Shown here: in pieces, positions 1 through 48,928 of the stretch
How the letters are laid out: the number at the start of each line of letters is the position of its first letter
Position numbering within the stretch: position 1 is the stretch's first letter
Assembly: GCA_032250835.1 (NCBI GenBank)
Contig: JAVVEA010000005.1
Location: 1-64,000, forward strand
Reading direction: 5' to 3'
DNA: 64,000 bases
DNA from: a bacterium
GTDB lineage: Bacteria; SAR324; XYD2-FULL-50-16
Position numbers and translations under genes: made by a program
Notes under the pieces: generated by a model
The model's database searches: none
What the model was told of the DNA's origin: nothing
Seen by the model: only the letters and a program-made list of their open reading frames with translations

Positions 1-3000
1 CGGTGGGGCAACTGCATCCAGGAGCCATACTGTCCATCCGTCAGGGCCCATGCGGTACCCGCCGACCAGCTACTGGCACCTAAGGTCACCTTATGCACCG
101 CGTGCCCCGTCGGGTCCGTGAAGTTGGTCGGGTTGTTGCGCACGTAGGCGTAGCGGTTGAAGTGGACCGCGCCGGTTCCATCGCCGTCGATCAAAGTGTC
201 CGGGCTGATGAAGCGGCCCAGGCTCGGATCATAGTAACGTGCGTTATAATAGATCAAACCGGTGGACTCGTCCAGTTCCTGACCCGTAAAAGAGGCGTAT
301 TGTTTGGCCGCCTTGCGGTGGTCCAAGGTGGACTGCACGTCTACCTCTCCGTATGGCAGGTGGCGGATTCTCGCCGCCACCTGGCCTTCTGAGTCGGTGA
401 TCAACGTCGCCGTTTGGATGTGGTTGGGGTGGAAGAACACCTTGTCGGTCATGGGCCGGGTCTGGACCATTTGGCCTAACAAGTTGCCCGAACTCAACGC
501 CCTCGCAGGAGCGCTGAGATCTTCGGAAGTTCCCTCTGTACCTTGATCGTCGTCAACGTCAACGTCCAGCGTCTCGCCGCTGAGCGTTGTCGAATCACCT
601 ATCGACAAGGGGTCTCCGTTACCCTGATTCCCGTTCCCGCAAGAAGCCACCCAAAACATCATGAACACCATGCTCAACGACACCAAGCGGTTGCCCCAAC
701 CGAAACGGCTGGTTTCCTGGGTTTCGTTTCGCCAGTTCTTGAGTTGACTCCACAATAAGGCCATCAGCACGGCGAGGGACAAAAGTCCAAAGAAGGTATA
801 AGGCAGGTTGACCAAGAATTGCGGTTCCGTAATTTTGGCCAAAAACCGGTAACCTACCGCTAAGGCAAAGCCCTTGGGCGTATTTTGGTCAAATATTTGT
901 GAATAGGCGACCCACTGACCGGCTTCGTCGGTTTCTCCGAAGGCGTAATGTTCATCGAAGCTGGCCAACTTGCCGTAACTGCCGGCTGAGATGGTTTTGG
1001 TGATCACAAACTTGTTGCCCTCGTGGTCGTGCTTCACTTGCACGCCTGCAGCGGGGTAGAAGGTGGTGTGTACCTTGTGGTTGTGGTGACCTCGGTAGAC
1101 CCGCTGCAAAATCCGCTGGCCCTTGTAGTCGTACGCGTTGGCCTGGAGTAGGCCTCCGTTTTTATAGACTTCCGTCATATGGCCCAAGGCGTTGTAGCGG
1201 TAGCCCCATTCAAGACCGTCCTGCAATTTGCCGGTCATCGCGCCGCTCCCATCATAGGTCACTTCGGTCCGCGTACCCGCAATCAGCTGTGTGCCGTTGT
1301 AGGTGAAGTCGCGGTCCACGGCGGCCCCGATATGGGTCATGTTACCGATCTGGTCATAAGCGTAGGTTTTATCACCATATGCGCCCGTGGCTCGGATCAA
1401 TTGTCCTAAAGGATCATATTCAAAAATCTGGCTCTGTGAAAGGCTGATGCCGGTCGAGAGGATGTGGTCTCGATCTTTTTCGCGGTCATGATCCTCTGAC
1501 TTACCGTGTTCATCGGATTTTTTTGACTCCTTATGTTCCCTTTCGTAGTGGTCTTTTTCCTGGCCATAATGATGGCCCTGGTCATGGTCATGGTCATCGT
1601 CTTCCTCACCGTAACGAGTGAAGTCGTCAATGCGGCTCACATTGCCCAGCACGTCGAAGCCGTAGCTCAGATTCTGCAGCTCCAAGCCCCTTGCGTTGGT
1701 GACCGACATGTTGGTGAGTAGGCCGCGCTGGTCAAAGCTAAAGCGGCTGACCACTTCAGAAGTCTGCCCTGGCTCCAAGGTCCGGGTGCTCGGTTGGCCG
1801 TAGGCGCTAAATCCGTCGTACTGTGCGTACACTTGCCCGTCGACCTTGACCTGGAACAGGTTGCCACCGGGCGTGTAATCGTAAGATTGCACCGTCGCCG
1901 GCGCGGGGCCAAATTTAGGGAAGCTTTCGCTGATCGCCCGACCCGCCAAGTCATAACTCCAATTACGGGTGAATACGGCTGGCAGGGCACCGAACTGAAC
2001 CGCTTCGGCGGATTTGCGCCCCATGGAGTCGTAAGCAAATTCAATCGTCCGGGCGGGATCAACGACTTTCGACAGGCGGCCCAGCGAGTTGGGCATTGCC
2101 GAATCGTCATAGGTAAAGGAGGTCACCTCTCCGTCGGCACTGATCCGGCGAGTGATGCGATTGAGCTCGTCAAACTCAAACCGCAGGGTACGACCCATGT
2201 TGTCGGTTACCCCCACTTTGTTGCCGTTTCGGTCATAATCATAGCTTACTAAACCCACCGAAGGGTCTTGCATCTGACGCAATTGGCCGAAGTTATCGAA
2301 GTTTTGTAAGACCTGCTGGCCATTGGGCAGATCGATCCGGGTCACGTTTCCCTTTAAATCATAGCCATAGAAAAGGGACCGCCCGGCTTTGTCTTTGACC
2401 TCAACCAGCCGTCCACGCCGGTCATATAGCCTTGTTTCTTTCTGCCCCTTCGCGTTGGTCATGGTGACCTGCCCCAGCCCGTATGCGTAAGTGATGGTTT
2501 TTCCATCGGGGCGCAGGATGCTTAAAGGACGTTCGGCCAAATCTCGCGTTGTCTGGCCCCAAAGCACGGGGTCGCCCTGAAAATGGGGCAAGCTCTTTTT
2601 TTCGATTGATCCGCCGAATTGAAGGACCCGTTCTTTTTCGGCCACAATCAAGCGTCCCTGGTCACCACTTTGAATGGTCCGGTAGACTTCGGAGAATCCA
2701 TCGAAGTATTCTGTACGTTCAGCCATCTGCAAGGGAGCACCGGGCTTTGAACTGGTGGTCCGTTGCAGAGTCCATTGCGTGTTGGGATCGCCTAGGGCCG
2801 AATAACTCTTGGTCGAGTAGCTGCCGTCTGGGCGGTTGACTTGGGTCAAGCGACCAAAAACATCGTAGCTGTAGCTGGTTTCATTTTGGTTGGCATCGCG
2901 CAACACAAGCAACTGTCCAGCGGCGTTGTATTCGCGAACGCTGCGTTGCCCCAAGGCATTGATTCCGCTGGTCAGATAGGCATTATAGATGGGGTCATAC

Positions 3001-6000
3001 TCTAAGACGCTACGGTTGCCTTTGGCATCTTCCAAGGCAATCAAGTTGCCACTGGTATCGTACGTCATCCCCTGAGTCTTAGGCACCCACACCCCGCTAG
3101 CGGTGGTGCATTGGGTCGATTCAGGACAGAAGAAAGACTCGATCGCCGTGATTTGGTTACCTGAATACTGGAAACGCGAGCCCGAAACCACAAGGCTGCC
3201 AGCGTATTCCATTGACTCGGTCGGCTGCCGCAAAATCCAGTTGGAAAGATCGTCGTGGTAGCTCATCTTCGTCCTGCGACAATCGGTGTCGATGCAGTCT
3301 ATCCGTTCGATGACGCTATCATAAGCGCCGAAGGTACTTTGGCTGGTCGAGGTCTTATATAAGGTGCCTCCTTCGTAGACTTTCTGCTCGCGGCTGGTCT
3401 GGTGAATACTGAAGACTTCCGGATAATGCTGCGCCCGGTCCCATTGATAGCTATCGACCGACAAAAGGCGGCCTAGATGATCGCGAGATTCCGAGCGAGA
3501 CGGCAATCCATGAAAGGGAACGTCTTGGCGGAAATATTCCGTCTTGGAAACTCCCAAGGGATCTACGTGAGTCGTCTTCGAAGCAAATCCCAGATTCTTG
3601 GTCTGGCTGCGGTCACCGGGCAGATAGCGGGCATTTTGGTACTGATACTGGCGCGACAGACTCATCCCACGACCATTCGTTTGCGTCACTTTCGTGACCA
3701 AGTAACGAAAGGCCGTATCGGCTTGCCCCGGACCGGCTGCTGCTCCGGGCACAACGGCACCTGGATGGTCTAAGGTAGACTGGTAGGCCAGTTGCATCGA
3801 GCCGCCAGCACCATTGTCTAATGCGACCAGAGCATCACGCTTCCCAGCCGTGCTCATCCATAATTTGGTAGCATCACCCCCGGTTTTGCCTCTCAAGAGC
3901 AGGTCGATGTTGCCATCGGCATTGAGGTCAAGAGAGCTCATCAGGCTTTGGGCCTCGCTCCAATCGGCGCGAGAAAACCCCAACACACCGTCTAGGCTTT
4001 GGGGTGTTTGGTACCCACCCGAAGCGGCGGCTTTTGCCACAAAGGAAGGCTGTGCGGCATCTTTGGACAGAAAATAGAGGTCTAAACGACCTGCGCCTTT
4101 GGTGTTCAACCAGCGCAACGAAAAGTTATCGGTTGCCCATTTGTCGGCGCTAATGCCCCATTTATTGCTCAAGCTGGCTGCGTTGTCGAACCCTTGACCG
4201 TTTTGCCGGGCCCATATGGGCGCCAAGCTGGTGTTCTTGGGTAGGAAGATCAAGTCGTCTAGGCCGTCAGCGTCTAGGTCGCGGGTAAGCAGTGTATAGT
4301 TGGCCGAATTCCAATGGCTCTTGTTCAAGCCATAGGCATTGGTCACAACCGTTAATCCCTGGTAGCCGGTAGGCGTCGAAAGGGATAGATAAGTTTCGTA
4401 GAGTTCGTTGTAGGGAACAAACAGAAGATCCGGGCGGCCATCTCGGTTGAGGTCAATCCGTTGCACCCGGAAGTTTGGCGTTGGGGCCACGGTCACATCG
4501 GGTGTGGCCATCTGCGGCAAACCCCAGGAGCTATTGTTTCGATCAGCTTTGGTGAAGCCACCTCCGGTCTTGCCGTTAAGCATAAATCCAGGCTGATGCA
4601 TGAAAATGGGCATCAGGTAAAAGTCCAGCATCCCGTCGCCGTTGTAGTCACCCAAGGCCCAGGTAACCGAGTCACCGCTCAAGGCGGCATTGCTCAAGCC
4701 CAACTGGCTGGCAATATCGACGGCTGATTTAAAACCGCCTTGTCCGTCCGCTTCAAGATACAAGGTCGACTGGTCTTGATTGAGCCCCTGCAAGAGCAAG
4801 TCGTCGAACGAGTCTTGGTTGTAGTCGACCACGTGAACAAGGTGGTTGCTTCGGTTCCAGGCGGCGTTGTTCATGCCGTAGCTGTTGGTGATGTTCTTTG
4901 CGTTGTCAAAACTGCCGTTTTGGTTGGCCAGCAGCAACTTCGCCTTTCCATTGCCCTTAGGCTGCAACAATAGATCCCTGCGGCCGTCACCATTGAAGTC
5001 GGCAAAGTGCAATTGACTCGCATCGATCGCCCATTCTGCTTGAGATACCCCCCAGACACCGTTCTGGTCACTCGGCACCGACGTTCCGGTCAACGTCGCA
5101 TCCCGCCAGGTGAACTGATGCGTCCTCAACAGACTGAGCCCGTCCGAACCAAACTCAGACACACGATTCAGGCGGCTGTACCCCGAGTCTTCACTCTGTT
5201 CATAAGCTAATTGATAGCTAAAGAAGAGGCTGGCTCCGGCGTAGATATCGATGCGAGATAGGCGCTGGGTCCGTTTTATAGGTGCTCCGTACGATTGAAT
5301 ATCGGAATAATCTGGCCGTCCTTCATAGATAAATTCCACTCCTTTAGCGTGGTCGGCGCTTCGACCATTGCCCAACGTATACAGCATGCGCCGAACCCGG
5401 AAATCGCCCGTGGTGGTGTCTTCGTCATACTGCACCTCATAATAGTTTCCGAACCGGTCTTCTACACGGTTTAAGGCCCAAACGCGGACGGCACCACCAC
5501 GGCCGCTTGCTTCGATCCGCGAATCGTTTGTGTATCCGAAGTAGGATTTAACTCCGTCGCGGGTCGTCCGAATCCATTGGCAAGGGCCAGCGGACCCACA
5601 GTTGCCTTGGGGCTGATACTGGGCCCAGTTTCCGATTCGGCGTGATATTGGGTTTTAGCCCCAGAGATGTCGACTAGCGGCCCATCGGGACCCACAAAGG
5701 AGTCTGCGGCGCTATATTGCACTCCATTCTCATTGGGCGTTCGCGAAATGGCTGAAAGCCCCCCTAGGTACCAACCGACCCCCAAAAGACCGTTCCCGCG
5801 TGAGGACGAATAGGCCAAAGCCAACTCAGGGCGCAGCTTCTGCGTTGCCTGAGGCAGCATCAAGGGGATGGCATGATTGAAATCACCTCGCGTCGAAACT
5901 TCGGCCTGACTCGGAGTAGAACTCAAGACCAGACACGCCACCAGGACTAAAATTGCGCTCCAATAACGCAGTCGTAGCTCCAGGGGGCGGTGTCTTTGAG

Positions 6001-6077
6001 TCTGCTTTTTGGGGGAGCAAGAGAGAGAGAGAGAGAGGATTCTGAGCTTTCAAGACGGTTACGATAGAATTAGACAT
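1..6077 (-). CDS. Large RHS/YD-repeat protein (SpvB-like N-term, FG-GAP repeats, TcdB-midN-like region, YD repeats, RHS core, start of C-terminal domain); 3' end outside window; two frameshifts near 5' end (phase-variable, pseudogene or assembly error)
   Basis: Manual translation. ATG 6077 with RBS GAGG. SpvB-like PELALAYSSSRGNGLLGVGWYLGGLSAISR lies in frame 5941. One frame appears open from ~5630 to position 1 (spot-checked; ORF track shows no stop-terminated ORF in it) with DFNGDGRRDLL, GDYNGDGMLDF, DLNRDGRPDLL, DLDADGLDDL, DLNADGNIDLL, many YxYD motifs, and core FTGQELDESTGLIYYNARYYDPSLGRFISPD...NRYAYVRNNPTNFTDPTGH. Confidence 0.9.
6020..6037 (-). repeat. (CT)9 simple sequence repeat in 5' coding region of RHS gene
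   Basis: AGAGAGAGAGAGAGAGAG on + strand; (CT)7 or (CT)10 would join ATG 6077 to the signal-peptide/SpvB frame. Confidence 0.9.
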
Positions 6078-6510
6078 AATTTCCTCACTTAGAAAGGGTA
6101 TTCAGAAGCCTCACTAACTACCTAGCGAGCCAATTGCCTAGGAGTAAAAAACAACTATGGGACTTCACCCTAAAAGATTTCGGGTTAATTCCCTAGGCAA
6201 TAACCTAATCGATTTCCCCAAAATGTCAAATAAAAAAATAACTCCGAAAAATGTTTTCCATAGGTACGCCAAAAACCAGGAGGACTCTTCAGGAATTTTA
6301 TTTTATTATATATATGTTTCAGTTGATTACAGTGACTTTTTACCAAACCGTCCAAATAAAGAGTCAAAGATTCGCTTCATCTTAACAGTGGTCCAGGATC
6401 GCTTCAGAATCGCTGCAAGGTATTTTGTTAAAAAGCCGGAGATCCTCGTATGTTGCTTCATAACCAAGACCTGCGACCATGCACCCGAAACATGCCGGAG
6501 TGTACCCCCC

Positions 6511-6549
6511 AAAAACACAAAACCCCGCTCTAGGCGGGGTTTTGCTTTT
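6511..6549. terminator. Probable bidirectional intrinsic terminator
   Basis: AAAACCCCGC-TCTAG-GCGGGGTTTT with T-rich tails on both strands. Confidence 0.7.
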
Positions 6550-6597
6550 AAACTAAATTTTCAAGGACCCTGACCCATCGCGGGGTTCCGAGCGGGC

Positions 6598-7735
6598 GTC
6601 ATGCGGTCCCCATAGGGGGACTTGGCTTCGGCTTCCCATGGACGCAGGCATCTGGGCCGGGCGCGGGGAAGGCGCTGTTTTCGCTGCATGGCTCCCGCAG
6701 GAACAGGGCGGTAGGCCCAATATGCGGGCCAATCAACCAAAAGTCACGCGAGGCCCCTAAATTCAGTCCAACGCGGTCCCCATAAGGGGGATTTGGCTTC
6801 GGCTTCCTTTTCACTCGGGCCCTAAGGGCACCCTACAACTCAGGAAGGCGCTGTTTCTGCTGCGTTGGCCCTCACCGGGGCCGGGCGGGTGGTCCTCGGG
6901 ACCACCGATCTACAAAATCACCAAAAGTCTGACTTCTAAAAGTCTCGCGAGGCCCCTAAATTTAGTCCAACGCGGTCCCCATAAGGGGGATTTGGCTTCG
7001 GCTTCCCACTGGCGGTGCCTCTGGGCCAACGCCGGGAAGGCGCTGTTTCGGCTGCGTTGGCCCTCAGCGGGGCCGAGCGGGTGGCCCTCGGGGCCACCGA
7101 TCTACAAAATCACCAAAAGTCTAACTTCTAAAGTCACGCGAGGCCCCTAAATCGTTCCAACGCGGTCCCCTAAGGGGGATAAGGCTCTTCGGCTTCATAT
7201 AGCCGGGCTCTTGAGGCCCGACGGCCAGAAGTCGCTGTTTCTGCTGCGTTGGCCCTAACCGGGGCCTTGCGGGTGGTCCTCGGGGCCACCGGGTTACAAA
7301 GTCACCTAAAAGTCTCGCAGGACCCTTAAAGGGCCCCCGTCACCTTAAAAAAGTTCCTTCGAAAAACCCCAAGGGAATCGAGCTAGCATCAATTCCCGTC
7401 AACCCAGCCCCCGTAGGGGCGCTGATCTTCCCCAAGCGGTCGGCGCGGTCCCCCTAAGGGAGACTTGGCTTCGGCTTCTGCCTGCGAGCAGGTCGAGAAG
7501 GCGCTGTTTTGGCTGCGCCGAAGGCCTAGAAAAATCAAGTTCTAAGAATGCTGAAGGAACCAGACCGGCTTCGTGCCGATCTCAAAAGAGCCAGAAATTG
7601 GCCCGCAAAACGAGGAGCTTAAACTTGCCCGTAGGAAGGTTCCCAGGGCGGTTTCACGGTCCCCTAAGGGGGACTTAGCTGGCTTCCCCAAAGGCTCCCG
7701 TCAGTGGGGCTAGGGGAGTGCGGTATTCAAGTGAA
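6598..7735. repeat. Tandem array of 5 clear + 1 degenerate copies of a ~80-100 nt structured motif (candidate ncRNA or REP-like array)
   Basis: Units at ~6600-6690, 6768-6868, 6967-7060, 7157-7252, 7440-7521, 7653-7735; shared core GCGGTCCCC-loop-GGGGA(T/C)TTGGCTTCGGCTTC[variable]GAAGGCGCTGTTTyNGCTGC. Confidence 0.9.
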
Positions 7736-7736
7736 T

Positions 7737-7905
7737 AACCGCCCTGCCGTGTAGTTGGGCGAATTGAACCTGAGTTGTCTCAGGTGGGAGTAGTATAACG
7801 GCGTCAGGCTTCCTAGCGAACCAGGCATGCACACTGCCGACAGAGACCAGTCCCTTTCTATAAGCATCGGCTCAATATATCCCAAAAAGCACGAACAGGG
7901 CAGTC
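7737..7905 (-). ncRNA. ssrS: 6S RNA
   Basis: Directly downstream of zapA; terminal stem GACTGCCCTG/CAGGGCGGTT; 6S-like motifs TTGAGCCGATG and CCCACCTGAG..CTCAGGTTCAA; ~170 nt; ends approximate. Confidence 0.85.
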
Positions 7906-7917
7906 AAGCTCCCATCT

Positions 7918-8250
7918 CTAATGAGCTTCTTGGGAAATTGCAACCTCAGAATGGGCAACCGCTTGGTTTCCCAGTAAAAGGTCCAATTCCCTAACCAAGG
8001 GCGTCAACCTTTCTTCGACCAGGGCCGATTGTTTTTTACGCTCCGCCTCCTCGCGGAGACCTTGGTCGGCGAGCATAATGGCGATTTTCATGGCCGCTTG
8101 GGAGAGATTGGGGTTCAGGCCCCCTTGGGCTAGGGCTCCAACGATTTCTTGGAGTCGCGACTCAATCTCTCGGACATGGGCTTCGCCATCACTACAACGC
8201 AGACTATAGCTCTGGTTATTCACCTCGATAGAGTAGGTCTGATTTTCCAT
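7918..8250 (-). CDS. zapA: Cell division protein ZapA
   Basis: YSIEVNNQSYSLRC...EAHVREI...AAMKIAIMLAD plus C-terminal coiled coil; precedes 6S RNA. Confidence 0.8.
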   Translation of the reverse strand: MENQTYSIEVNNQSYSLRCSDGEAHVREIESRLQEIVGALAQGGLNPNLSQAAMKIAIMLADQGLREEAERKKQSALVEERLTPLVRELDLLLGNQAVAHSEVAISQEAH

Positions 8251-8530
8251 GAACAAATTCTTCGGCCCTTGTGTTTAAGCCCTTACAGAACCCTTTTGGT
8301 TCTCTCGGGTAAATTATAGCACAGCCGCCGCCGCTTGCAAGGTCTATTTGTTCATAGCAGATGAATTTTTTTTAACTTGCCAGCAGGGGCTCATCCATTG
8401 TTACTTGGATTCCAGCGGGATTTCAAGACTTTTTGAACCCGAGGCATCATGGACCCTTTTTACTTGTCAGGCTCAAGTTCCTTCGGTTAATCTTGTACCC
8501 TTACCAACCAGCATAAGATCCAGATTCCCA

Positions 8531-8674
8531 ATGCCCGAAATCCATAATCTCAATTACGTAGTAGCCTCTTACGGCATCACTTTTGTCGTAATCTTCGGTT
8601 ACGCCCTTTGGGTCTGGGCCCGCATCGCTAAGGCGAAGCGGCAACAGGCCGAACTCAACCAAAACCAAAAATGA
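8531..8674 (+). CDS. ccmD: Heme exporter protein CcmD-like (47 aa)
   Basis: YVVASYGITFVVIFGY TM segment plus basic tail; ATGA overlap with ccmE. Confidence 0.75.
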   Translation: MPEIHNLNYVVASYGITFVVIFGYALWVWARIAKAKRQQAELNQNQK

Positions 8675-9120
8675 ACAAACGCAGCATCAAGTTCATCGCT
8701 GGTGGGGTCTTAATCCTGCTGGTTGCCTTGGGGCTATTTTCTTCGCTTAGCTCCGAGAACCTCACCTACTACCAAACACCCAACGAAGTATTGGCCAACC
8801 CCGCTAAGTACGAAAACGAAAAAATCCGCATCATGGGTTTGATCGAAAAAGACTCAGTAACCTGGGAACCCCAGGACACCCGCCTTAGCTTCCGTATCAC
8901 CGAAGACTCAGAAACCTTTTTGAGCGTCACCTACATCGGCAGCAAGCCGGACATGTTCAAAGAAGGTCAAGGGGTCGTAGTCGAAGGCATGATGGTCAGT
9001 GCCAAGGAATTTAAAGCCAACACCCTTCTGGTTAAGCACTCCGAGGAATACAAGGTAGACCCTGAGATGATGCACCAGATGAAAAAAGACAAATACTTCG
9101 ACTCGCTGAGCGCTAACTGA
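8671..9120 (+). CDS. ccmE: Cytochrome c maturation heme chaperone CcmE
   Basis: PDMFKEGQGVVVEG and KHSEEY heme-binding motif. Confidence 0.95.
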   Translation: MNKRSIKFIAGGVLILLVALGLFSSLSSENLTYYQTPNEVLANPAKYENEKIRIMGLIEKDSVTWEPQDTRLSFRITEDSETFLSVTYIGSKPDMFKEGQGVVVEGMMVSAKEFKANTLLVKHSEEYKVDPEMMHQMKKDKYFDSLSAN

Positions 9121-9127
9121 GAACACT

Positions 9128-11089
9128 ATGATTGTTGATATTGGTTATTACGCCCTGCTGTCCGCTTTGGTCCTCACCCTGTTCGGTATCTTCGCCGGGC
9201 TTTCGGGTATCCATAAGGACAGCAACAACCTGATCATTTCCTTTCGCTACTCGATCATAGCGGTTTTCGGTTTAGTTGCGGTTGCCTATGCAGCGCTTAG
9301 CTATGCGTTCTTGAGCAACGACTTCACCGTTAAGTTTGTCGCCAATAACTCCAGCACCGACCTCCCGATATTCTATAAGATAACCGCCGTTTGGGGCGGT
9401 TTGGAAGGTTCGCTGCTCTTGTGGCAAATCATCTTATGTTCCTTCGCGGCCATCGTCGCGATCCGCTACGCTAAGTCCAACCGGGAAACACTGCCCTATA
9501 CGCTGGTGGTCTTGCAGTTAAGCACCCTCTTTTTGTTGTTCCTGCTGATCGGCTGGTCGAACCCCTTTGAGCGGATTTTCCCAATCCCCGCCGAGGGACG
9601 CGGCTTAAATCCGCTGTTACAAAACCCCGGCATGGTCGCCCACCCGCCTGCGTTATACCTGGGTTATGTGGGGTTTAACATCCCCTTCGCCTTCGCCATG
9701 GGCAGCTTGCTGTCTAAAAAACCCAACGATGATTGGATTTTAACGACCCGCCGCTGGACCCTGATCAGTTGGTTCTTTTTGACTATGGGTATGATCTTAG
9801 GCGGCAACTGGGCCTATGTGGAATTGGGCTGGGGCGGTTATTGGGCCTGGGACCCAGTAGAAAACGCTTCGCTGATGCCCTGGCTGACGGGTACCGCTTT
9901 CTTGCACTCGGTGATGGTCCAAGAAAAACGCAACGGGCTGAAACTTTGGAACTTGATGTTGATCATTGGGACCTTTGCCCTTTCGATCTTAGGCACCTTC
10001 ATCACCCGCTCGGGCGTGCTCAACTCGGTCCACGCCTTTAGTAAGTCCAACATTGGCCCGGCTTTCTTGGTTTTCATCGCCCTCATCTTAGTCGGCTCTT
10101 ACGCGCTGCTGTACGTGCGCCAAAGCCGCTTTGCCATCAAAGAAAAAGCCAAGGGTTTTTTGAGCAAGGAGAACGGCTTCTTGCTCAACAACTTGGTCTT
10201 TGTGGCGATGGCATTCACCGTCTTTTACGGCACCGTCTTCCCGCTCTTGGCCGAAGGCTTGGCCAACAAGAAAATCAGCATCCAGGCCCCCTTCTTTAAC
10301 AGCATCATGTTGCCTTTGGGCGTGTTCACCATCTTCTTGATGGGCGTCACCCAGGCCTTAGGTTGGAAAAAGACCAGCAACCAGATGTTGCGGCGTGAAT
10401 TAATGGCCCCCGTTATCCTCTCGGTGGCTTTTGCGGTAGTGATGCCTTTCTTGGTAGAGACCTCTTGGCAGATGCTGTTGATGTCAACCATGACCCTCTT
10501 TGCGCTGTACGTGAACGTGCTTGAACTGGTGCGCAGTTTCCGCGGCGGGTTCCAGCGCAAGACCAAGTCCGGCGGTGGGTCGAAGCTCAAATCGATCTTA
10601 ACGGACCGGCGCAAGCGCGGCGGTTTGATCGTGCATTTGGGTGTGGTGGTCATGATGATCGGCTTTACCGGCAACTTCTTCGGCGAAGAGGGGGCCTTTA
10701 CGCTCAATCGGGGCGAAACCCACGCTTTTGCCGGGTACCAGCTAAAATACACCGAGGCGCTTGAATATAAGCAGCTCAACGCGGAACATGTCGGTGCCCG
10801 CATCTTGATCAGCAGAGACGGTGTCTCCGAAGGGGAGATTTTACCTTCTAAGGCCTTCTACCCGACCCGTCCCGAACCGATGACCGAGGTGGCCATCCAC
10901 CGCACCCTGGTCCACGACCTATATGTTAGTTTGGCTTCGATCAACGAGGACGGCTCGGCGACGCTGAATCTTTACTTCAACCCCATGGTCAACTTCGTCT
11001 GGGCCAGTATGGGCCTTTACATCTTAGGTTTGGCCTATAGCCTCTCCTACAAGCCAGCCCAAAAACGCGGCGGACACCTAAAGGAATAG
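9128..11089 (+). CDS. ccmF: Heme lyase CcmF
   Basis: WGGYWAWDPVENASLMPW (WWD domain), HPP, SVHAF. Confidence 0.97.
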   Translation: MIVDIGYYALLSALVLTLFGIFAGLSGIHKDSNNLIISFRYSIIAVFGLVAVAYAALSYAFLSNDFTVKFVANNSSTDLPIFYKITAVWGGLEGSLLLWQIILCSFAAIVAIRYAKSNRETLPYTLVVLQLSTLFLLFLLIGWSNPFERIFPIPAEGRGLNPLLQNPGMVAHPPALYLGYVGFNIPFAFAMGSLLSKKPNDDWILTTRRWTLISWFFLTMGMILGGNWAYVELGWGGYWAWDPVENASLMPWLTGTAFLHSVMVQEKRNGLKLWNLMLIIGTFALSILGTFITRSGVLNSVHAFSKSNIGPAFLVFIALILVGSYALLYVRQSRFAIKEKAKGFLSKENGFLLNNLVFVAMAFTVFYGTVFPLLAEGLANKKISIQAPFFNSIMLPLGVFTIFLMGVTQALGWKKTSNQMLRRELMAPVILSVAFAVVMPFLVETSWQMLLMSTMTLFALYVNVLELVRSFRGGFQRKTKSGGGSKLKSILTDRRKRGGLIVHLGVVVMMIGFTGNFFGEEGAFTLNRGETHAFAGYQLKYTEALEYKQLNAEHVGARILISRDGVSEGEILPSKAFYPTRPEPMTEVAIHRTLVHDLYVSLASINEDGSATLNLYFNPMVNFVWASMGLYILGLAYSLSYKPAQKRGGHLKE

Positions 11090-11622
11090 TGGGAATGAAC
11101 CGAAAGTTAGTCTTTGCCGTCGCTGGGTTGGTTTTTACGGGCTTTGTCTCCTTAATGGTCTTCGGGCTTTTTTATGCCTCCAATCCCAAGGAAATCCCTT
11201 CAGCCTTGATCGGCACCAAGGCCTCCAATTTCTCGACCGTTACCTTTAATGGTCAGCCCATCTCGCTCGAACAGTTTAAAGGCCACCCGGTAATTTTAAA
11301 CTTTTGGGCTAGTTGGTGTGTCTCTTGCCGCCAAGAAGCCCATATCATCGAAACAGCGCACCTGAAATACACACCCAAAGGGGCTGTGTTTATCGGGATC
11401 GCCATCAATGACACCCGAGAAAAATCCTTAGGATTTATCCGCAAATATGGTAAAACCTATTTACTCGGGCCCGACGACGAGATCGGCACTATCTCCCTAA
11501 ACTACGGCGTTTCGGCCGTACCCGAGACTTTCTTTATCGACCAAGAAGGCGTGATCCGTTTCAAATCACTCGGACCGGTCCAGCCGGGCGCGATCGATGA
11601 ATTTTTAGATTCACAACTATAG
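11089..11622 (+). CDS. ccmG: Thiol:disulfide oxidoreductase CcmG/DsbE (TlpA family)
   Basis: LNFWASWCVSC, YGVSAVPETFFID, N-terminal TM. Confidence 0.88.
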   Translation: MGMNRKLVFAVAGLVFTGFVSLMVFGLFYASNPKEIPSALIGTKASNFSTVTFNGQPISLEQFKGHPVILNFWASWCVSCRQEAHIIETAHLKYTPKGAVFIGIAINDTREKSLGFIRKYGKTYLLGPDDEIGTISLNYGVSAVPETFFIDQEGVIRFKSLGPVQPGAIDEFLDSQL

Positions 11623-48754: not shown

Positions 48755-48831
48755 TGGCATCCCCAAGGGGATTCGAACCCCTGTTACCAACGTGAAAGGC
48801 TGGTGTCCTAGGCCGACTAGACGATGGGGAC
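48755..48831 (-). tRNA. tRNA-Glu(TTC)
   Basis: Cloverleaf GTCCCCATCG...CCAGC-CTTTCAC-GTTGG...GGTTCGAATCCC...TGCCA. Confidence 0.96.
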
Positions 48832-48852
48832 GCTTCTGTTCTATCCGCGGAA

Positions 48853-48928
48853 TGGTGAGCCGGGGGGGGGTCGAACCCCCGACAACCTGATTAAAAGTCA
48901 GGTGCTCTACCAACTGAGCTACCGGCCC
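48853..48928 (-). tRNA. tRNA-Lys(TTT)
   Basis: GGGCCGGTAGCTCAGTTGGTAGAGC..CCTGA-CTTTTAA-TCAGG..GGTTCGA..ACCA. Confidence 0.96.

Follow-up and report, generated by a model that had tools for sequence, protein, structure and literature searches.

What is the row of repeated elements that lies beside the 6S RNA gene in the window, the whole 64-kb stretch of DNA analysed here? A preliminary description had seen in it five clear copies and one decayed copy of a folded motif that it could not match to known CRISPR, tRNA, riboswitch or ribozyme families. The array is probably a new non-coding RNA, because the three-armed fold of its units is kept, the units belong to no catalogued family, they were found in no other genus, and they are present in RNA libraries.

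Six full module copies of about 95 nt each form a row of about 1.2 kb on the + strand, adjoining the 6S RNA gene. The covariance model R1, derived from these six copies, gives exactly six matches in the 3.66-Mb genome, all of them on the + strand within 6595–7738, with E values ranging from 5e-23 to 3e-7. The earlier count of copies is thus reproduced, with copy 6 as the divergent one, and a truncated seventh copy is added to it. An exact pattern of the conserved hairpin occurs five times in the genome in the forward direction, never in reverse, and never with a reversed-pattern control. Tandem Repeats Finder reports copies 2–4 as a 192-nt unit present in 3.0 copies with 83% matches, and the repeat period across the array is 170–270 nt. 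The features of the locus, in window coordinates, are the following.

6517–6545, − strand: strong terminator-like hairpin at the far end of the array, 12 pairs, with a T-run on the − strand; read on the + strand, the same site is a hairpin plus TTTTGCTTTT
6595–6696, + strand: copy 1, 97.4 bits; closing stem CATGC/GCATG, extendable to about 6590/6700
6765–6872, + strand: copy 2, 98.2 bits; first 192-nt tandem unit, with a unit-specific tip at about 6808–6842
6888–6906, + strand: linker hairpin GGTGGTCC-TCG-GGACCACC
6964–7064, + strand: copy 3, 104.4 bits; tip at about 7007–7034, with no sequence likeness to that of copy 2
7080–7098, + strand: linker hairpin again, as GGTGGCCC/GGGCCACC, changed on both sides
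7154–7256, + strand: copy 4, 92 bits; 2-nt insertion GGCT(CT)TCGG, and a G.U in place of the G.G mismatch
7272–7290, + strand: linker hairpin again, with U.G at the same pair
about 7405–7439, + strand: truncated seventh copy, reduced to a P2-like hairpin plus the 5' strand of P3, and more distinct in L022
7437–7525, + strand: copy 5, 81.3 bits; closing stem TCGGCGC/GCGCCGA, short tip CCTG-CGAG-CAGG
7640–7648 and 7738–7746: helix CAGGGCGGT/ACCGCCCTG enclosing copy 6
7650–7738, + strand: copy 6, divergent, 43.4 bits
7732–7909, − strand: 6S RNA gene (RF00013, 92.8 bits against a gathering score of 46.4)
7918–8256, − strand: zapA (PF05164), upstream of 6S, with a promoter-like site at 8340–8313

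The neighbours of the array are an Rhs/SpvB-like gene, the 6S gene and zapA. On the − strand, a large ORF at 3–5435 contains RHS repeats, FG-GAP repeats and a TcdB middle/N-terminal region, and is preceded by a short SpvB-domain ORF (5471–5941, −). From this content, the segment 3–5941 is read as a toxin-complex/Rhs-like operon that is cut by the contig start. The region upstream of these ORFs (6000–6500) is AT-rich, with a GC content of 0.33–0.43 as compared with 0.58–0.62 in the array, and this spacer includes an (AG)9 dinucleotide run at 6020–6037. At the opposite end, a ccmD-ccmE-ccmF-thioredoxin-like cytochrome c maturation cluster (8348–11622, +) diverges from zapA.

The module fold is a three-way junction with the arms P1, P2 and P3. 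The multi-way junction with conserved bases that had been described at first is thereby specified as three-armed, with a core that is nearly invariant. The closing stem P1 is free in sequence and kept in pairing, reading CAUGC/GCAUG, CCAACGC/GCGUUGG, UCGGCGC/GCGCCGA or UUCAC/GUGAA depending on the copy. All the closing stems quoted originally are present, namely CATGCGG/CTGCATG in copy 1, CCAACGCGG/CTGCGTTGG in copies 2–4, TCGGCGCGG/CTGCGCCGA in copy 5 and TTCAC/GTGAA in copy 6, and the same holds for the inner elements TCCCC-loop-GGGGA, TTGGCTT, CGGCTTC/GAAG(G/T)CG and CTGTTT. P2 is the nearly invariant hairpin GGUCCCC-loop-GGGGAYU. P3 is formed by CGG.CUUCC/GGAAG.GCG, in which a G.G mismatch is kept (replaced by G.U in copy 4), and carries a tip that differs in every copy and always folds as a hairpin. 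UUGGCUU and CUGUUUYNGCUG are kept as single strands at the junction or in an internal loop. An alternative local pairing, GGC-UUCG-GCU, can be drawn in the core, and its loop is precisely where the copies differ in length; either version of the pairing in this region is possible.

The modules are joined by A/C-rich linkers that bear their own small hairpin. The flanks of copies 2–4 are 94–97% identical and the tips of these copies are unrelated, which suggests either that gene conversion homogenises all but the tips, or that the tips change very fast. The linker after copy 1 (6697–6712) is alike in 14 of 16 nt to 7889–7904, at the end of the 6S gene, and part of it (6704–6712) is alike in 9 of 9 nt to 7738–7746, the former terminator arm discussed below; these short likenesses could be relics of duplication or due to chance.

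Eleven aligned copies, from the window and from a second array (L022), were used for an analysis of base pairing. Standard pairs occupy 93.0% of the 229 pair cells, and 40.7–53.5% when the partners are slid by 1–3 columns. The covariation score of the alignment is 0.164 against a mean of 0.094 after shuffling, and none of 500 shuffles reaches the observed score. Since the copies are paralogues from two arrays and were aligned by fitting to the model, independent events are fewer than these figures suggest. In P1, four of the seven pairs change on both sides, and the covariation of the closing stem that had been pointed out before is borne out. RNAalifold calls P2 and P3 in the 11-copy alignment, and misses P1 because two copies are gapped there. 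Between strains, the pair U6808–A6842 in the tip of copy 2 becomes C–G in run X4, and in run X2 position 6808 alone is changed, leaving C6808 opposite A6842. The linker hairpins vary at 6901 (A>G) and 7285 (G>A), and one of their pairs toggles between U-A, U.G and C-G among copies and strains. On these comparisons, the module structure is under selection.

The search for known families gave no match to the modules. With Rfam 15 at gathering thresholds, only 6S and two tRNAs pass in the 64-kb window (the tRNA genes are adjacent, at 48758–48928 on the − strand). When the threshold was relaxed to E ≤ 10 over 6300–8000, the modules attracted only ALIL (13.2 bits, cut-off 50) and Cobalamin (11.4 bits, cut-off 31.5), so the earlier failure to assign the motif to a known family is borne out. 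The modules are not recognisable as 6S homologues either, the matches shared with 6S being at most 10 nt long with E ≥ 0.22. A coding repeat was rejected: six-frame translations contain no frame or start codon common to the units, and the lengths of the P2 loop and the tip vary by steps that are not multiples of three. An ORF of 138 aa at 6157–6573 has no Pfam match, crosses the terminator hairpin and is unlike a protein in sequence.

Several functional classes of repeat were also rejected. CRISPR arrays were taken as 23–50 nt repeats that alternate with unique spacers of similar size and have cas genes nearby; the period here is 170–270 nt, and no Cas domain was found in the eight neighbouring ORFs scanned. 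A type III toxin-antitoxin system would place repeats of ~36 nt just ahead of an endoribonuclease ORF; here the unit measures 192 nt, and neither the array nor the sequence behind it holds a conserved ORF. As a sponge for CsrA, the array would be expected to carry GGA motifs, of which there are 18 on the + strand and 21 on the − strand in 1138 nt, an excess on neither strand; the conserved GGA within GGGGGA is part of the P2 stem. The genome does have a CsrA gene, in a flagellin-csrA-fliW operon (a flagellin-like gene, csrA and fliW at G000:C11:277411–280569, locus L042). The antagonist of a FliW-partnered CsrA is FliW. A CsrA sponge is unlikely because of this operon context and because GGA is not enriched.

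The array is genus-restricted within the collections searched. No module copy was found in the rest of the genome or in any of the 18 other genomes of the family, and none of 87 other genomes of the class has the module (the set comprises all genomes of the phylum in the collection). Applied without filters to 16 6S loci from relatives, R1 reaches 12 bits at best (E 0.41). BLAST against plasmids and phages and a scan of viral contigs (0 loci) did not find the module. An exact-pattern scan returned five loci in species-representative genomes and seven in metagenome contigs. The former score at most 23.6 bits with R1, have no Rfam match and were taken as chance, two of them (L012 and L014) being ordinary gene-like sequence by eye; six of the seven metagenome loci score at most 16.1 bits. 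The only true array is L022.

In three of the 16 family members with 6S, the contig breaks just past this gene, ending 4, 7 or 92 nt beyond its 3' end (G007:C21, G017:C24 and G002:C129; loci L032, L038 and L030), and the assembly of G007 has only about 50 contigs. These genomes may have unassembled repeats downstream of 6S; R1 found no copies in the three assemblies.

L022 is a metagenome contig of 1412 nt with the order zapA-6S-array, and it ends inside the array. R1, built from the window copies only, scores its copies at 80.0, 71.8, 35.1 and 33.2 bits, and the cut copy at 22 bits. The identities between L022 and the window are listed below.

6S gene: 177/178 identical
zapA third codon positions: 91/113 identical
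linkers: about 82–83% identical
copy 5 core: 61/64 identical
copy 5 tip: 17/18 identical
copy 6 tip: exchanged for a longer, unrelated sequence, with the flanks kept

These values indicate that the linkers drift at about the silent rate and that the cores are constrained, with some tips turning over by replacement. A candidate long-range helix between 7556–7563 and 7630–7636 is not kept in L022 and was dropped.

The position of the array points to its origin. In G003, from the nearest genus, and in G010, the 6S gene is directly followed by a GGGCGG...CCGCCC hairpin and a T-run. The same two arms are found in the window (7738–7746 and 7640–7648), where they enclose copy 6, and no T-run follows. 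The array therefore sits inside the former terminator of the 6S gene. Most other members of the family lack the array and carry a small convergent ORF at this site. In L027 and L028, which belong to genus g7, the first ~120 nt past 6S contain a partial duplicate of the 6S 3' end, with ACTATTAGC...GGTGGTTAC present twice, and the region behind 6S thus seems prone to duplication in this family. A near-palindrome at 7717–7741, GCGGTATTC-AAGT-GAATAACCGC, runs across the 3' part of copy 6 and the 3' end of 6S; it could form a local hairpin on either strand, in competition with the closing stem of copy 6.

Public sequencing runs were compared with the locus. Five runs share words with the stretch; four of these are RNA libraries, and three studies are represented. 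Contigs of four runs were compared with the array, leaving out X5 and the zero-share runs X6–X9. Contigs from X1 and X4 (one sediment study) and from X2 (an ice study) cover modules and linkers at 85–99% identity, for example at 6557–6796, 6706–6948, 7228–7398 and 7416–7539, and an X1 contig (7255–7813) bridges copies 5 and 6 and 82 nt of the 6S gene. Among the variant rows listed, those that touch copies 1 and 2 alter the loop of P2 and the tip of P3. The RNA-library contigs fit transcription of the array; they are strandless and compatible with DNA carry-over. In the runs compared, no contig covers 6400–6507. The 6S gene is not covered in X4, nor over its 5' half in X1, and the contigs of X1 and X4, which come from one study, both end at 6557; the gaps in cover and the shared end were not counted as evidence.

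With moderate confidence, we take the + strand as the functional RNA, which would run convergently with 6S and overlap its 3' end. The G+U content of the + strand is 0.535–0.60 in all six modules and 0.40–0.44 in all five linkers, and the reference values are 0.539 for sense 6S and 0.548 and 0.527 for the two sense tRNAs. Structured modules set on A/C-rich linkers thus look like a sense RNA on the + strand. The pair cells read on this strand hold 31 G.U against 8 A.C, 25 of the 31 G.U lying in three column pairs that have no independent pairing support, and the core C-UUCG-G is present in seven of ten full copies. The U-A, U.G and C-G forms of one linker-hairpin pair likewise speak for this strand. 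Folding energies do not separate the strands: the mean z-scores are about −2.35 on + and −2.07 on −, and the folds of the + strand are always more stable, but so are its shuffles. The scan detected no promoter-like site on the + strand from the 6517–6545 hairpin up to copy 1, nor a + strand terminator behind copy 6.

The alternative on the opposite strand is that the RNA is a long structured 3' extension of the 6S transcript. Transcription from the zapA/6S promoters would run past the lost T-run to the 6545–6517 hairpin, and the reverse-complement modules would act as elements of processing or stability, or have a function of their own. The loss of the T-run behind the terminator arms of 6S predicts such read-through, and the only good promoter-like site (8340–8313, upstream of zapA) and the only strong terminator-like site (6545–6517) that the scan reports are both on the − strand. 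The X1 contig that joins copies 5 and 6 to 82 nt of 6S is in keeping with a continuous transcript, and the A.C mismatches of the + strand (eight cells, and C6808/A6842 in X2) become G.U on the − strand. By contrast, the modules would be A+C-rich and the linkers G+U-rich on this strand, the reverse of the measured sense RNAs. The kept G.U in GCGG/CUGC would become A.C, the UUCG loops would become CGAA, and about half of the variants would lose the U-A/U.G pair of the linker hairpin to a mismatch. Overall, we regard a − strand RNA as fairly unlikely.

We rate the array as a real, selected and undescribed RNA family with a familiar overall architecture and a narrow distribution, and we describe it as a genus-restricted, selected and probably transcribed multi-module non-coding RNA. 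In the literature listings searched, a repeat array beside 6S/ssrS is not described. Our overall explanation, which we hold as tentative and somewhat short of probable, is a genus-restricted non-coding RNA locus at about 6557–7746 with six full and one truncated three-way-junction modules. The array would have grown inside the intrinsic terminator that the 6S gene has in sister genera. Its RNA would serve as a multivalent platform, either a sponge or a scaffold, on which several copies of a single partner, be it a protein or perhaps an RNA, are bound. Binding would take place through the invariant bases of the junction and internal loop, and the variable tip would be either a tolerated periphery or an element that gives each module its specificity.

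Known sequestering RNAs are likewise built from several copies of a module set on inert linkers. That the array works as a multivalent binding platform is possible, if somewhat unlikely, and is the function we favour; the idea is drawn from the architecture, namely the repeated modules, the invariant unpaired bases and the inert linkers, and from the position beside 6S. A search for Hfq, ProQ and Ro60 as candidate partners found none of them in the genome, which is 97% complete; their absence is not thereby proven.

The modules might instead be parts of a precursor that is cut into small RNAs of ~100 nt, with a common scaffold and a variable P3 hairpin that recognises different targets. The near-identical flanks and unrelated tips of copies 2–4 would be expected of such units, as would the replacement of the copy 6 tip between strains with its flanks kept, and the fact that tips are always hairpins. 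On the other hand, a BLAST search of the six tips against the genome gave short matches at chance level, and among the matches listed no non-self match of a tip is better than E = 0.018 (20 nt, 95% identity), which speaks against tips as guides. Between strains, copy 5 keeps its tip (17/18 identical). The units have no conserved promoter: a TAAAT box of the window reads GAAAT in L022. Furthermore, with Hfq and ProQ not found, the organism appears to lack the usual small-RNA chaperones. A small-RNA precursor is, in our estimate, quite unlikely.

We consider it very unlikely that the modules form a constant protein-binding scaffold that presents a different hairpin per unit for an effector, or that the array is an antisense or partner RNA of 6S. 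In the latter version, the RNA would overlap the 3' end of 6S and tune how much RNA polymerase 6S sequesters. Either idea would explain the homogenised flanks with distinct tips and the birth of the array inside the 6S terminator.

The possibility that the array is a local selfish or recombination DNA repeat of REP/BIME, MITE or attC type, without an RNA function of its own, is highly improbable. Copy 6 looks as if it were inserted into the loop of a hairpin, and the genome has one gene for a Y1 transposase. However, dispersed copies of the REP/BIME or MITE kind are absent, every genome match lying within 6595–7738 on one contig, and the single Y1_Tnp match is on another contig, C43, where R1 finds no module copy, whereas the RAYT (Y1 transposase) gene of a REP/BIME family has the repeat at its flanks. 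The preliminary interpretation had left a choice between a structured RNA array and a REP-like single-stranded DNA element: the repeated structured RNA motif stands, with contigs in RNA libraries, and the DNA reading is weak because the copies are all found at a single locus. As to attC, integron arrays have a neighbouring intI and carry the core-site consensus RYYYAAC ... GTTRRRY at the two ends of each repeat. Here the neighbours are an Rhs/SpvB-like gene, 6S and zapA; copies 2–4 start with GTCCAAC and end with GTTGG, in a GTCCAAC...GTTGGCC arrangement resembling these sites, whereas copies 1, 5 and 6 have neither box, and integron attC sites were rejected. The unpaired junction bases are also invariant while the stems covary, and there is no match to a plasmid, a phage or a viral contig. 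The least probable reading is that each module is a self-cleaving ribozyme or a ligand aptamer of a new class: catalytic and ligand-binding cores typically combine variable peripheral helices with an invariant multi-way junction, but no ribozyme or riboswitch model matched the modules at E ≤ 10, and an aptamer would have no downstream + strand gene to control.

If the favoured reading as a multi-module non-coding RNA is correct, the locus would capture a structured RNA family early in its history, absent from sister genera and arisen within the terminator of an RNA gene that ranks among the most strongly transcribed in bacteria. It would already have six modules with a constrained core and a fast-changing periphery. 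Should the modules bind a partner, the array would show how sequestering RNAs come into being in nature. If + is the true strand, the RNA converges on 6S and overlaps it, and could be linked to the availability of RNA polymerase. The reach of the finding is limited so far to one genus of an uncultured lineage.

The array can be set against several known systems. A preprint survey of periodic arrays that feed RNA-guided systems (CRISPR, TIGR, VIPR; 10.64898/2026.10.21.760802) reports periods of 60–79, 18 or 5 nt. In such arrays, a conserved unit alternates with a short unit-specific segment, a layout that the present array resembles. The array differs in its period of 170–270 nt and in its variable portion, which is a self-paired hairpin inside the fold and not a free spacer. 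It also has no effector gene beside it, and its tips lack a significant match among the matches listed. Like REP/BIME and MITE elements, the array consists of imperfect palindromes, lies in an intergenic region on the 3' side of a gene and may have been inserted into a terminator. Those elements are dispersed over many loci, whereas six of six matches of the array are at one locus and unpaired bases are conserved.

The ToxI RNA is a repeat RNA as well, each unit of which binds one protein; its repeats of ~36 nt stand directly upstream of the toxin gene, in contrast to the period of ~192 nt and the lack of an adjacent conserved ORF found here. The cyanobacterial NsiR1 is a tandem array of small-RNA genes. 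The array resembles it in having head-to-tail units of small-RNA size in one intergenic region, and differs in lacking a promoter or terminator kept from unit to unit, in its far more structured modules and in its unit-specific tips. From CsrB and RsmZ, finally, the array is set apart by the lack of loop GGA motifs and of GGA enrichment, by a host CsrA that is FliW-partnered, and by a module that is a 95-nt three-way junction and not a short hairpin. It shares with these RNAs the presence of many copies of one small structured module, the binding unit in CsrB/RsmZ-type RNAs, on one RNA, and it adjoins 6S, another sequestering RNA.
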